DNA of 63,826 bases, counting the filler, from Collodictyon triciliatum (lineage: Eukaryota), in the NCBI GenBank assembly GCA_043381765.1. It is 22 parts of 22 records of this genome, joined end to end, with 100 filler letters (N's around TTAATTAATTAA, not from the genome) between each part and the next. Parts side by side here need not be neighbours in the genome. Positions count along the whole stretch, not along the records: positions 14,743 to 17,589 come from JBHJMP010008200.1; positions 17,690 to 20,535 come from JBHJMP010008201.1; positions 20,636 to 23,481 come from JBHJMP010008202.1; positions 23,582 to 26,427 come from JBHJMP010008203.1; 18 more parts are not named here. One strand, given 5' to 3'. The position numbers were made by a program, and so were the translations under genes. Positions 14,743 to 26,427 of this stretch are shown here, piece after piece. Each line of letters starts with the position of its first letter. The first letter of the stretch is position 1. The notes below the pieces were generated by a model. That model ran no database searches and was not told the DNA's origin. It worked only from the letters and a program-made list of their open reading frames with translations.

Positions 14743-14863
14743 CTACTCGGGTAGGGCCGAATTCTCCGCCATTGAATGGGGTTACTTTGGTGGTGTGACG
14801 GGCCAGAACTTTGTCATTGTAGTTCCGAATCTTCATGTACTTCGCTTCGCTAGGATACTCCAT
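14743..14863 (-). CDS. N-terminal 40 aa of a probable double-jelly-roll major capsid protein (partial, not in the ORF track)
   Basis: Manual translation MEYPSEAKYMKIRNYNDKVLARHTTKVTPFNGGEFGPTRV is open to the contig edge. The P..l.Y…v.P.NG..F.P pattern resembles PLV/Polinton MCP starts, and the TCT(-13) motif precedes the ATG. Confidence 0.5.
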
Positions 14864-14990
14864 GCATACAGCAAGAAATTAATTTCAGATCAAACGCGCC
14901 CCAGAATAAAATGGGCATCGGATATCTCCTTGCAAATGTCCCCTTGCAAATGTCCCCTTTTAGGGCCCTTCCAAAACTATTTTTAATTTG

Positions 14991-15024
14991 ACCTTACCTT
15001 AGATGAAATTGGGTAAGGTAAGGT
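14991..15024. repeat. 11-bp perfect inverted repeat (hairpin) flanked by short tandem duplications
   Basis: ACCTTACCTTA (14991-15001) pairs with TAAGGTAAGGT (15014-15024). CCTTGCAAATGTCC x2 at 14928-14955 and AGGATAAACAT x2 at 15069-15090. Confidence 0.85.
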
Positions 15025-15181
15025 ATATTTATCCATCGACTTTCTATATTTTGGGGGTTGAACAAGTAAGGATAAACATAGGATAAACATAAAAATATGA
15101 GACTGAAAGAAGTAAGGAGACATGCCAGTGCCCATTTTCTTCTGGAGGATGAACAGGACTTAAACAGGGGATCTGCATTGT

Positions 15182-15541
15182 TTACCTAAATCTCAATTCT
15201 CGCCCGTGAGTGGCTAGCGCATAAGCCTGCCCCAGGTCATGGATGCCGGAGCCTAAACTCTTTGTATTTATTTTCTTGACGTCCAGGTCTCCCAGAGTGC
15301 TCAACCCCCTACCCAGGTAATTGGCTGCCTTGATAGTGCTGACCAGGATGTTGGTGATGGTCTGGATGGCCGGCTTCACTCCAGTACTCGTCAATAAATT
15401 GTCGACCAGTCCCATGCTGGCATCGTCTAGTTTCACATATGCGTTGTTGAGCCCCTCTAATCGTCTTATCGCTCTATCAGTTGATGTAGTAAGAAATCGC
15501 CCTACCCCGCGCGCGCCTCTTTGTGCGTAATTTACGATCAT
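15182..15541 (-). CDS. 119-aa hypothetical basic, amphipathic-helical protein of the putative viral element
   Basis: Complete ATG-to-stop ORF with TCT(-13), divergent from the 15574 ORF with a 32-bp gap. Confidence 0.65.
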   Translation of the reverse strand: MIVNYAQRGARGVGRFLTTSTDRAIRRLEGLNNAYVKLDDASMGLVDNLLTSTGVKPAIQTITNILVSTIKAANYLGRGLSTLGDLDVKKINTKSLGSGIHDLGQAYALATHGRELRFR

Positions 15542-15573
15542 ACTGAGGCACAGATAATAATCTAGGGTAAAGC

Positions 15574-24196: not shown

Positions 24197-24239
24197 ATGA
24201 ATCCATAGAAAATAATTTCTGACAAGAGTATTGCAATTG

Positions 24240-24266
24240 TTGTAAACATTTTTAAAATGTTTACAA
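24240..24266. promoter_or_regulatory. 27-bp palindrome in the divergent intergenic region
   Basis: TTGTAAACATTTT-T-AAAATGTTTACAA: perfect 13-bp arms ending 4 nt before the ATG at 24271. Confidence 0.7.
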
Positions 24267-24270
24267 TGAT

Positions 24271-25038
24271 ATGGACAAAGCGTTTTACATTTATGTTGAT
24301 TCTGAAAACCGAGAAAGCGGAAGTATCGCAGACTTTAATTTCGCAACAACTCAGAACAGATATGTGTCAAGCAAAGCAAAAATCGGATTAGAGAGCATCC
24401 AAATACCGAATGCCGTACACAATGTTACGAGTGCCAATAATGAATTGGCTTTTCTTTGCCAAGTCGGAGCAGACAGCCCCGTTTCATACAATATTTCACT
24501 TGAGACTGGACTACAAACAATCAATGAAATAGTCAGTGACATTAGAACAAAGATGAACGCAGTCACGGCATCCCAGTCAGCTAATGCAGTTGTTTCAGTT
24601 TCATTTCTTACCGGCAAACAGAAGATTGCTATCAAAGGAGACGGAGCATCAATCTCATATCAATTGTTTGTGAATTCGTCGACGTGCCGGGACCTAATTG
24701 GGCTGACGGCCAATCTATCATTCAATACGTCTTTTGTGGAGCTACAGAATACGGTCAATATTCGACCTTTTGATTATGTGTACCTGGTCAGCCCGAACAT
24801 TCAGAGTTCGAGCTTTGCCAGCAATATAGGCGGCAATGGCATCATCGCAAAAATACCGCTGACTCTTGGTTCACGGTACTCGAGTTATTACGAGGTCAAC
24901 GACAACATTCTCGAGAATCTGATGGACTGCTCGTATATCCCGTTCAGCTGGAATTTCAGATTGGTAGATAGACTGGGACGGACAATAAATCTGTTACAAG
25001 ACTATTCGTTTATGCTGCGTGTAATTCCCGAGGAATAA
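24271..25038 (+). CDS. Penton/minor capsid protein-like (single jelly-roll), 255 aa
   Basis: YIYVDSENRESGSIADF, IGLESIQIPNAVHNVTSANNELAF, IIAKIPL and FRLVDRLGRTINLLQDYSFML match the idS.dR…F / iPns.yni…nN / iiakIp / l.D..g..i.l..dwsf.l pattern of PLV/NCLDV pentons. Confidence 0.75.
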   Translation: MDKAFYIYVDSENRESGSIADFNFATTQNRYVSSKAKIGLESIQIPNAVHNVTSANNELAFLCQVGADSPVSYNISLETGLQTINEIVSDIRTKMNAVTASQSANAVVSVSFLTGKQKIAIKGDGASISYQLFVNSSTCRDLIGLTANLSFNTSFVELQNTVNIRPFDYVYLVSPNIQSSSFASNIGGNGIIAKIPLTLGSRYSSYYEVNDNILENLMDCSYIPFSWNFRLVDRLGRTINLLQDYSFMLRVIPEE

Positions 25039-25054
25039 ATTCTTGGCAAGTGTA

Positions 25055-26427
25055 ATGGGTTTTTTCATTACAGAAGAAAAGGAGCTACCGGAATTTTCCA
25101 ATCAAGACGCAAACAAAGTATTAAAAGTAGATTCAAGTGGGCTTTATTTACAATGGCTGCAGGAGACGACGGCACTGGCTGAGCTTCCAAGTCAAACTGA
25201 AAATAGTGGACGTTTTCTGACAACAAACGGCACAACCCCGTCGTGGACAGATGGGCTCACAGTTCCTGATGGCTCTACCGCGGCCCCTTCTTATAGTTTC
25301 GAGAATTCTACAAATTCTGGTTTAATAAGAACACTGGTCGGTACTGATAATGGGATTGGTTTTGTAGCTAGTGGAACACAAGTGTGCAGTATTGTAGGAG
25401 GAAATTTTAGATTGAGCGGAGGTTCAAGTATTCGAAACAACGTATCTAATCCAAGTTCTAATATACAGTTTATTGGAAATACAGGAGGCGCAACGGGGCA
25501 TATACAGATGACATTTAGTGATTCAAGTACAGGAACTGCAGCAACTTACAAATTGGGTAATGGCACAAACTGGCCAGCTACGGAAACGGTTATGAGTAGG
25601 CTAGCTGGTGGAACTGGAACGAATGAAATATTTGTAACTGAGCACGGGAATACGTATTTTAGATTTCTAGGGGCAACAGGCACGGGGGCTACTTTGCCGA
25701 CACGAGTTCAGAAGGTTGAAATTAATAATTCAGGTATGAGCATAACAGGCGATCTTACAGTGAGTGGACCCTCAATAATAAATTCAACACTGACTTTAAC
25801 AGGAAATATATTTTATGCACAAAATAATGGATTTCGATGGAATGACAATGTTTTTGTAACTGGTACAAATATAAATAGTACTACCTGTAGTATGAATTTT
25901 TTCTGTTCAGATGCAGCAAATAAAAGTAGGTTAAGACTGGACAAGTTCTTTGTCGCTTGCGATAACGTCCCTTTAAATTTAACTGTAATGGGAACCGCCA
26001 CAAACCCAGCATTAATATTTAACGACAACTTTAATCAGCCTATAGCTGATCGTTCTGGTTTATACGGACCTGGTGATAATCAAATTGGTATTTCAACAGG
26101 AGGAGTTCAAAGGGTCCTAGTAGACAATACAGGATTAAATGTATCTAACAATTTAATAGTAAATCAACAGATCATTCAACCAACCAATGTAATTACTGTA
26201 ACTGCCAACAGTCAAACTTTCGACCTGGGCGCAACATTTAGTAACAATGTTATGGTTGATATGGGGGGTTTTACACCTGTGGTATTAAGATTTCTTAGCT
26301 CTGGCTTTACAAATGGAATGTCATTTAATATTGTGCCAAATAGCAATTTATCAGGCGCTGTTCTTCAATTAACGCCAATTGCGGGTGTTACTTTACGAGT
26401 TTATCAAGGAGGGCTAACAAATATTTA
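25055..26427 (+). CDS. Fibre/spike-like G/T/N/S-rich beta protein with phage tail-fibre-type repeats (3'-partial)
   Basis: Tandem ELPEFSNQDANKVLKVDSSGLYLQW / ELPSQTENSGRFLTTNGTTPSW, plus two G.t.aP…F…SGl….n.IG….G.q units. The first ATG is at 25055; the track starts at TTG 25043. Confidence 0.7.

Follow-up and report, generated by a model that had tools for sequence, protein, structure and literature searches.

A symmetric AT-rich box at a fixed distance from capsid-side gene starts, a probable core promoter of a polinton-like virus family in a Collodictyon triciliatum assembly

The genome assembly of the eukaryote Collodictyon triciliatum (GCA_043381765.1) contains fragments of a virus-like element whose genes are preceded by a short AT-rich box, typically placed so that a TCT triplet lies at -13 relative to the start codon. 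The fragments were studied in a stretch of 63,826 bases, here called the window, which is composed of 22 contigs (21 of 2,836-2,865 bp and one of 1,983 bp) in roughly length order, separated by artificial N44-TTAATTAATTAA-N44 linkers. Sequence of the element is confined to contig 6 (14743-17589) and contig 9 (23582-26427), about 5.7 kb together. An initial annotation had reported a TCT-N10-ATG motif over the span 14743-25057, which also takes in two contigs unrelated to the element (17690-23481). It had assigned the virus-like genes of both contigs to one element family and had likened the motif to the late promoter of mavirus and Cafeteria roenbergensis virus (CroV). The analysis described here indicates that the box is probably a compact core promoter with an initiator, serving the morphogenesis-side genes of a polinton-like family of about 17 kb.

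The element and its genes

Contigs 6 and 9 carry seven open reading frames (ORFs) of the element. All of them are open as far as the contigs reach, and none has a significant match to a Pfam or PHROGs family. The leftmost ORF of contig 6 (14744-14863, minus strand) comprises the first 40 codons of a gene that runs off the contig end. Its product shares 27 of 39 residues (69%) with the P0008 N-terminus (E 1e-20). P0008 is a full-length relative, of 540 residues, of an end-truncated gene in the metagenome locus L004; the two are 86% identical, and the L004 gene has 129 relatives at E values up to 0.001. By sequence alone this family yields no PDB match by profile and no Pfam family. The AlphaFold model of P0008 (predicted local distance difference test score, pLDDT, 77.8) has double-jelly-roll capsid proteins as its best Foldseek matches, including those of Singapore grouper iridovirus (SGIV, 1.3e-15), Sputnik (6.9e-13), mavirus (3.2e-10), and also Paramecium bursaria chlorella virus 1 (PBCV-1). 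Recognized by predicted fold only, the cut gene is that of a double-jelly-roll major capsid protein.

The other two ORFs of contig 6 are divergent. An intact gene of 119 codons with no assigned function (15182-15541, minus strand) has 55-61% protein identity to L004 13505-13864 and to positions 12486-12845 of a second metagenome locus, L005. On the opposite strand, a large ORF (15574-17589, plus strand) encodes at least 672 residues of low-complexity and coiled-coil sequence and is cut by the contig end. By position it corresponds to genes of 1342-1368 codons in L004 and L005, with which it shares a weak coiled-coil similarity (E 0.029), and it belongs to no Pfam family.

Contig 9 begins with the first 94 codons of an A32-type packaging ATPase (23582-23863, minus strand), whose product is 91% identical to a 240-residue protein of the metagenome locus L001. 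The fragment on its own has no significant family, but the ATPases of L001 (9.8e-9) and L004 (2.4e-9) both match Pox_A32 above the curated cut-off. Directly upstream of the ATPase lies a lysine-rich gene of 108 codons (23870-24196, minus strand), which has orthologues of 115-118 residues in L001-L008. Thus, the initial description of the element as virus-like is borne out by a capsid protein recognized by its fold and by an A32-type ATPase.

The remaining two ORFs of contig 9 are on the plus strand. The first (24271-25038) encodes 255 residues and is called penton-like here, a tentative label. The AlphaFold model of this protein is too poor for a structure search (pLDDT 44.8), a PDB profile search reached only E 0.59 with no profile match, and an hhalign comparison with a 321-residue ORF of the distant locus L012 returned a probability of 0.06%. 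The sole lead came from the Atlas, as viral clusters that include DUF5901, and the name "penton" given in the initial annotation could not be confirmed. The second ORF (25055-26427) encodes at least 457 residues, runs off the contig, and is 61% identical over 290 alignment columns to an 807-residue protein of L004. It has no Pfam family, and it is termed fibre-like from its composition and position.

Relatives and the identity of the family

Seven relatives of the penton-like protein were found, all of them close (81-92% identity) and unnamed, and through these relatives eight metagenome loci (L001-L008) were reached. The loci L004 and L005 span 14.8 kb and 12.9 kb, respectively. Three clades, approximately, could be compared: the window with L001; L004; and L005 with its close copies. 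Both L004 and L005 contain homologues of genes from contig 6 and from contig 9, and L001 contains the genes of contig 9 together with one non-coding module of contig 6. No other contig of the window matches L001, L004, or L005. Since L004 and L005 each hold homologues of both contigs, the two contigs, judged by this homology, are pieces of one family, as had been proposed.

The longest contigs with these proteins are 16.9-17.2 kb in length, and their source records call the proteins only "hypothetical". The gene order is best seen in L004. It starts with an rve integrase (7.5e-12), a gene of 187 codons, a DUF5906 primase-helicase (1.8e-16), and the Pox_A32 ATPase, and it continues with a gene of 116 codons, the penton-like gene, the 807-codon fibre-like gene, a coiled-coil gene of 1368 codons, the 119-codon gene, and the end-truncated capsid gene. 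Neighbouring genes adjoin each other, with only 6-16 bp between them. The gene of 187 codons, which lies between the integrase and the helicase (L004 1304-1867 and L005 519-1082, both minus strand), encodes a protein that ends in KRPRGRPKK, which we take to be an AT-hook-like motif. Neither Pfam nor the Atlas has a match for this protein.

The integrase, the primase-helicase, the A32 ATPase, and the double-jelly-roll capsid protein together indicate that the family is an undescribed polinton-like virus of about 17 kb. No cysteine protease or polymerase family is present among the nine L004 ORFs, which cover 14.8 kb of a genome of roughly 17.2 kb and leave about 2.4 kb outside, and the small ORFs read from the element and its relatives have no protease signature. 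With neither a cysteine protease nor any other gene specific to virophages found, the element resembles polinton-like viruses more than mavirus. Searches of IMG/VR for relatives of the penton-like protein, the capsid alignment A4, P0012, and P0017 were all negative, as was a search of the contigs of prokaryote genomes for the penton-like protein.

The box at the gene starts of the window

Upon re-reading of the 30 nt upstream of each start, all seven sites of the initial annotation proved exact. TCT lies at -13 before the ATGs at 14863 (minus), 15541 (minus), 15574 (plus), and 24196 (minus), and at -14 before 25055 (plus). TCG replaces it at -13 before the ATPase start at 23863 (minus), and TGT is found at -13 before the penton-like start at 24271 (plus). 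These triplets, except the last, form the end of a longer box, which was scored with a weight matrix whose training set was limited to 16 unique upstream sites from the metagenome relatives.

The box of the capsid gene, ATCTGAAATTAATTTCTTGC (14871-14890, minus strand), has its TCT at 14876-14874 and scores 15.3 bits; its core, GAAATTAATTTC, is a perfect palindrome of 12 nt. The ATPase box, TCAAATCTTTTATTTCGTTA (23871-23890, minus strand), scores 11.2 bits and overlaps the 3' end of the 108-codon gene. The box of the fibre-like gene, CCCGAGGAATAAATTCTTGG (25027-25046, plus strand), has its TCT at 25041-25043 and scores 15.3 bits. It overlaps the stop codon of the penton-like gene, so the transcripts of these two genes must overlap or co-terminate.

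Two boxes stand between divergent genes. The 32 bp between the 119-codon gene and the large ORF (15542-15573) contain the near-palindrome AGATAATAATCT, which provides a TCT at -13 to both flanking genes, at 15554-15552 on the minus strand and at 15561-15563 on the plus strand. The second, AGAAAATAATTTCT (24207-24220), scores 17.6 bits on one strand and 15.2 bits on the other, which are the first and fourth best matches in the window. Its minus-strand TCT (24209-24207) lies at -13 of the 108-codon gene and its plus-strand TCT (24218-24220) serves the penton-like gene. Thus, although TGT does occupy -13 of the penton-like start, this gene is not a variant, as had been proposed, since a box is present after all. 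It has been displaced to -53 by an insertion of 41 nt (24230-24270) that is absent from L001 and L005; in relatives, the ATG follows 9-10 nt past the TCT. The insertion contains a perfect palindrome of 27 nt (24240-24266), which would place a 13-bp hairpin in the leader of the penton-like gene. One contig of a DNA sequencing run skips 24181-24270.

Divergent gene pairs that are 32-34 bp apart therefore use a single symmetric box, AGAAAATAATTTCT or AGATAATAATCT, with TCT at -13 on both strands. The symmetry is intrinsic to the box rather than a result of placing two promoters back to back. In L004, 265 bp separate the promoters of the 116-codon gene and the penton-like gene, and nevertheless the score of each on the opposite strand is 13.8-13.9 bits; the capsid palindrome GAAATTAATTTC stands before a gene on one side only. 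Because of this symmetry, the box suggests recognition by a dimeric factor.

Conservation among relatives

The 16 unique sites of the metagenome relatives have the consensus RRAAAWTWATTTCT, followed by N10 and ATG. The box is about 14 nt long and ends in TTTCT; it can be written (A/G)(A/G)AAA-WTWA-TTTC(T/G) and is often the near-palindrome AGAAAWTWWTTTCT. T is present at -13 in all 16 sites and C at -12 in 15, and no site has a G or C at -20 to -13. The 3' flank is rich in G and T, with G or T at -10 in 13 of the 16 sites and at -9 in 13, and G at -8 in 11. The distance from TCT to ATG is -13, with a range of -12 to -14.

In the relatives, as in the window, the box is found upstream of six genes of the morphogenesis side. 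It precedes the capsid gene in both loci available, the 119-codon gene in all three, and the ATPase gene in all four (window, L001, L004, L005), with TCG every time. The gene of 108-118 codons has it at the first ATG in four of six loci. In L006 and L007 the box is instead in register with the second ATG, which begins MS, as in the orthologues. The penton-like gene has it in five of six loci (at -12 in L001, displaced in the window), and the fibre-like gene in three of three (at -14 in the window). No box is present before the integrase (one locus), the helicase (three loci), or the gene of 187 codons (two loci). The box thus divides a capsid-side from a replication-side gene class within a 17-kb genome.

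Conservation is restricted to the box itself. In 16 between-clade pairs, identity is 0.77 at -20 to -11 and 0.45 both at -10 to -1 and at -30 to -21, and the ATPase and 119-residue proteins of these comparisons are only 53-61% identical. Thus, the box and the length of the spacer have been kept while the sequence of the 10-nt spacer has drifted. This retention of the motif at an equal distance in orthologous promoters, that is, outside the window, is the strongest support for a functional element.

Comparison with host starts and other sequences

Background frequencies were taken from the 20 other contigs of the window, with 1977 ATGs. These contigs carry ordinary eukaryotic genes or pieces of them, such as Per1, a protein kinase, a glycosyltransferase of family 64, and a cyclophilin exon. 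Some host contigs end in long (ATA)n microsatellites and poly-A runs (14578-14642, 18546-18661, 17690-17760), which are the probable cause of the assembly breaks there. An Rfam scan of the window gave no match.

TCT at -13 precedes 29 of the 1977 host ATGs (1.5%), 3 of the 99 starts of ORFs of at least 60 residues, and 1 of the 31 starts of ORFs of at least 100 residues, versus 4 of the 7 element starts. The binomial probability of the latter is 1.6e-6, or about 0.003 when corrected for 64 trinucleotides at 30 positions (1920). Two of the four sites lie in one 32-bp intergenic region and are not fully independent. Within the window, then, the enrichment is suggestive, not overwhelming. TGC at -39 is also common to four of the seven element starts, via overlapping or palindromic sites.

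The matrix gives a sharper separation. When the 63.8-kb window is scanned, the top four matches, at 24209 (minus), 14876 (minus), 25041 (plus), and 24218 (plus), all fall in the element contigs; three of them are followed by an ORF start at 13-14 nt, and the last is the penton box that was displaced. Matches of at least 12 bits number five in the 5.7 kb of the element versus two in the roughly 55 kb of other contigs. The best host-contig matches, at 63508 (minus) and 35722 (plus), are followed by no recognizable gene and were treated as chance. None of the 1977 host ATGs has an in-register match of even 8 bits, so the earlier statement that host starts lack the motif, made from a few genes, extends to the whole background.

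The initial annotation had also named two outcomes that would count against the motif: TCT equally frequent upstream of host genes, or enrichment lost once more element ORFs are added. For the first, the host and element counts given above differ widely. For the second, L004 alone has TCT at -13 in 5 of its 10 genes versus 9 of its 399 ATGs overall, a count that includes those five (binomial probability 1.6e-7, about 3e-4 corrected), and the box is kept across the relatives.

A search of IMG/VR with the exact pattern AAATAATTTCT-N10-ATG found at least 118 loci, each with a single match. Among those listed, none has more than one ORF start that carries the box, versus 7 of 18 ORF starts in L004 and 5 of 14 in L005, both of which are training data. 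In the AT-rich loci among the matches listed, TCT lies at -13 in 2 of 419 ORF starts. The box is thus specific to this family among the sequences compared.

A candidate promoter and points against it

Together, these results indicate that the box is probably a compact core promoter, with an initiator, of the morphogenesis-side gene class of the family. In the proposed mechanism, a sequence-specific factor, possibly a dimer, would bind the symmetric AT-rich box, and transcription would start within TTTCT or immediately past it, so that leaders would not exceed about 13 nt. At divergent pairs, a single symmetric box in an intergenic region of 32-34 bp would drive both genes. Since the genes for the integrase, the primase-helicase, and the 187-residue AT-hook-like protein have no box, the box would mark a separate, probably late, expression class.

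Several points weigh against this interpretation. The factor of 1920 used to correct the enrichment was our own choice. A loose pattern, WWWWWTCK-N10-ATG, occurs window-wide at the level of chance (7 found versus 6.8 expected from shuffles), although five of the seven matches precede genuine ORF starts within the 5.7 kb of element sequence. The relatives are homologous and make up only about three clades, so the conservation counts are not independent events. Membership in the class is not clean, as the large ORF has a box in the window only, with none in L004 and a TCT at -8 in L005. A strong copy of the box (15.1 bits) also lies inside the 1368-codon gene of L004 (10081-10103, same strand). 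An in-frame ATG follows this copy 13 nt on and could yield a C-terminal product of about 239 residues; the copy is not seen in L005. The "late" timing is taken from gene function alone.

Finally, the only RNA data are metatranscriptome contigs, which show neither starts nor strands and to which DNA may have contributed. Three RNA-library runs and one DNA run were compared as assembled contigs, and the share of sampled words contained in any one run was at most 0.14. The runs include relatives at 85-99% likeness, and RNA-library contigs cover 23582-24247 and 24282-25230. The gap between these two contigs coincides with the 27-nt palindrome, a feature that may interrupt assembly by itself. Given contigs without starts or strands, and possible DNA in the libraries, no conclusion was drawn about transcription or habitat.

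What might read the box

If the box is a core promoter, the question arises as to what reads it. One answer, which we regard as a fair contender though short of an even chance, is that the element is autonomous and nuclear. Host RNA polymerase II would then read the box as a TATA-like or initiator core promoter, with or without a factor encoded by the element. An early protein may assist, for example the 187-residue protein with its AT-hook-like C-terminus, so that the element would have its own early-to-late switch. The rve integrase and the primase-helicase suggest a nuclear, integrating life style, the other upstream sequences of the replication-side genes fit an internal temporal programme, and a palindromic box suits a dimeric factor. 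An early-side protein that ends in what we take to be an AT-hook would also go well with an AT-rich box, but this assignment depends on one short motif, in a protein on which Pfam and the Atlas are silent. Some polinton-like viruses replicate independently (PMC10945749; this and the other papers cited here are quoted from excerpts of their text). On the other hand, the box is absent from all 1977 host ATGs, so it is not a general host core promoter, and the whole scheme is putative.

A second answer is that an as yet undiscovered giant virus of the same host uses AGAAAWTWWTTTCT-N10-ATG as its late promoter, and that the family is a virophage-type hyperparasite of, or alongside, the eukaryote of the assembly. 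Its capsid genes would depend on the helper, and the host might gain protection. This proposal, made in the initial annotation, is tentative and in our view also short of an even chance, with late machinery of a helper and host polymerase II judged about equally likely readers. In general type the box agrees with the CroV/mavirus late motif as described in the excerpts of PMC5294985 and PMC8547959, since both combine TCT near the start codon with AT-rich sequence, and the host contigs do not use it. According to PMC10945749 and bioRxiv 10.1101/2022.07.28.501842, in the portions available, all isolated virophages and some polinton-like viruses rely on a giant virus and share its promoters.

Promoter sharing does occur within the group. 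Two distant polinton-like contigs from IMG/VR, L009 and L012, whose ATPases are 28% identical to that of the element, carry the mimivirid early box AAAATTGA before several genes (6 and 7 copies, respectively). Another conserved box, TACAAATGAGAACAA, lies in these two contigs about 30 nt upstream of three genes: that of the ATPase, an ORF of 383 residues, and an ORF of 586-590 residues. In L004 and L005, a copy of AAAATTGA lies 72-82 nt upstream of the 187-codon gene. However, the three copies in L004 are near the chance level (about 1.3 expected, an estimate), and since L004 and L005 are 93% identical in the 187-codon gene, the shared position is weak evidence. L005 has one copy, and L001 and the element contigs of the window have none.

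Other observations also speak against a helper. The box does not have the TCTA sequence or the flank of the CroV motif, and it precedes only part of the genes, whereas Sputnik and mavirus use the late promoter of their helper extensively, according to the excerpted text of bioRxiv 10.1101/2022.07.28.501842. The virophage protease was not seen among the nine L004 ORFs scanned, the window has no recognizable giant-virus-like contig, and no giant-virus sequence with an enriched box is present among the at least 118 IMG/VR loci matched by the exact pattern. One mimivirid-like candidate, L072 (13.4 kb of an 82-kb IMG/VR contig, with 2C_adapt, DnaJ_C, and AAA), was considered. Of its 15 ORFs that reach 80 residues, 3 have an AT-flanked TCT at -13, but of the 13 that reach 100 residues only 1 does, which is probably chance, and the candidate was rejected.

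An action in RNA, rather than in DNA, is improbable. The box would then belong to the leader and, from its fixed distance to the AUG, help translation to start, for instance on polycistronic transcripts. The strictly fixed 13-nt distance across gene families agrees with this idea, and with neighbours only 6-16 bp apart, long multi-gene transcripts are plausible. Yet the box is symmetric at the level of DNA, and one copy serves two divergent genes in spacers of 32-34 bp. An RNA-level role is hard to reconcile with this arrangement, because each transcript would have to begin inside the coding region of its neighbour. We know of no RNA element of this kind. Lastly, a mere AT-rich upstream bias with a few coincidental TCT triplets, to which the unenriched loose pattern and the equally frequent TGC at -39 could be ascribed, is very hard to credit, given that the position is kept in orthologous promoters with diverged spacers, that enrichment holds within the single genome L004, that a matrix trained on relatives singles out element starts in the window, and that both negative controls (host ATGs and the IMG/VR loci listed) are clean.

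A mobile module within the family

The non-coding module that contig 6 shares with L001 resembles a miniature inverted-repeat transposable element (MITE). It is an insertion of 245 bp (14901-15145) between the 119-codon gene and the capsid promoter, bounded by terminal inverted repeats of 17 nt, CCAGAATAAAATGGGCA and TGCCCATTTTCTTCTGG. The copy in L001 (2462-2707) is 82.8% identical and occupies a different place, between the ATPase and helicase genes. The module was not found in the other contigs of the window. It has the look of a very small mobile element resident in these virus genomes.

Implications

Promoter boxes common to small capsid-bearing elements and giant viruses are the main current sequence clue to dependence. 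For this unnamed family, the box now has a defined form: its distance to the ATG is fixed, its shape is symmetric, and one gene class carries it. It predicts where transcripts should start, and giant-virus genomes can be searched with it for a late promoter that matches. Should it prove to be the late promoter of a helper, element, helper, and host could be traced to one another through it, and the carried copies might serve as an inducible defence, as mavirus does in Cafeteria. If there is no helper, the box together with the AT-hook-like protein would suggest that a polinton-like virus can have an early-to-late switch entirely its own; a literature search found no paper that describes such a switch.

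Comparison with known promoter systems

The closest comparison is with the late motif of CroV, which is TCTA with AT-rich sequence on both sides and precedes 124 late genes (PMC5294985). In the excerpts of PMC8547959, the same TCTA motif is reported only for mavirus and type 4 endogenous mavirus-like elements (EMALEs), other EMALE types having other motifs, and it is also described in ChlorV (PMC13196603). The background given in the initial annotation, that CroV and mavirus share an AT-flanked TCTA late motif, agrees with the first two of these papers. In Cafeteria, reactivation by CroV is confined to EMALEs that have the CroV late motif (PMC10945749).

EMALE types 1-3 and 5-8 of Cafeteria burkhardae are endogenous virophage-like elements with type-specific motifs, which have been read as matching different giant viruses (PMC8547959). 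The present family is similar in having a box of its own. It differs in that EMALEs are mavirus-like and have a protease, which is absent from the ORFs seen here. The EMALE motifs could be compared by description, and one of them may resemble the box.

Polinton-like viruses of the type of Phaeocystis globosa virus virophage (PgVV) also have short, common AT-rich boxes upstream of their genes. PgVV has the early box AAAATTGA in common with its helper, and a late motif was not found, according to the available text of bioRxiv 10.1101/2022.07.28.501842. The box described here has a different sequence, adjoins the ATG, and marks capsid-side genes, and AAAATTGA is missing from both element contigs of the window. 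A literature search for a TTTCT-type box in papers on giant viruses or polinton-like viruses returned nothing relevant.

The poxvirus late promoter, with its initiator TAAAT(G), provides a parallel in design: an AT-rich core is followed by an initiator at a fixed and very short distance from the late start codon (PMC5294985, as excerpted). The sequence and the virus group are different, however, the box has a variable spacer of 10 nt before the ATG, and there is no evidence for a viral RNA polymerase in the element.

With CroV, mavirus, type 4 EMALEs, and ChlorV, in turn, the family shares a short TCT motif with an AT-rich 5' side, found at many genes immediately upstream of the start codons of virion genes, and with mavirus it shares the form of a small DNA virus with a double-jelly-roll capsid; the comparison with mavirus was made on the motif sequence. 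The likeness claimed in the initial annotation holds to this extent, that is, for an AT-rich TCT next to the ATG. Beyond it, the two motifs part. Only 3 of 23 sites (1 of 16 in relatives and 2 of 7 in the window) have an A directly 3' of TCT, the others having T, G, or C; the 3' flank is G/T-rich with G at -8, and the box is a near-palindrome of 14 nt restricted to morphogenesis-side genes. Because two defining features, the A as fourth base and the AT-rich 3' flank, are not shared, the box is by its sequence a different motif, outside the CroV/mavirus promoter family. A promoter box in a polinton-like or virophage-type element is of a known kind; what is notable here is the fixed spacing and the symmetric, bidirectional design.

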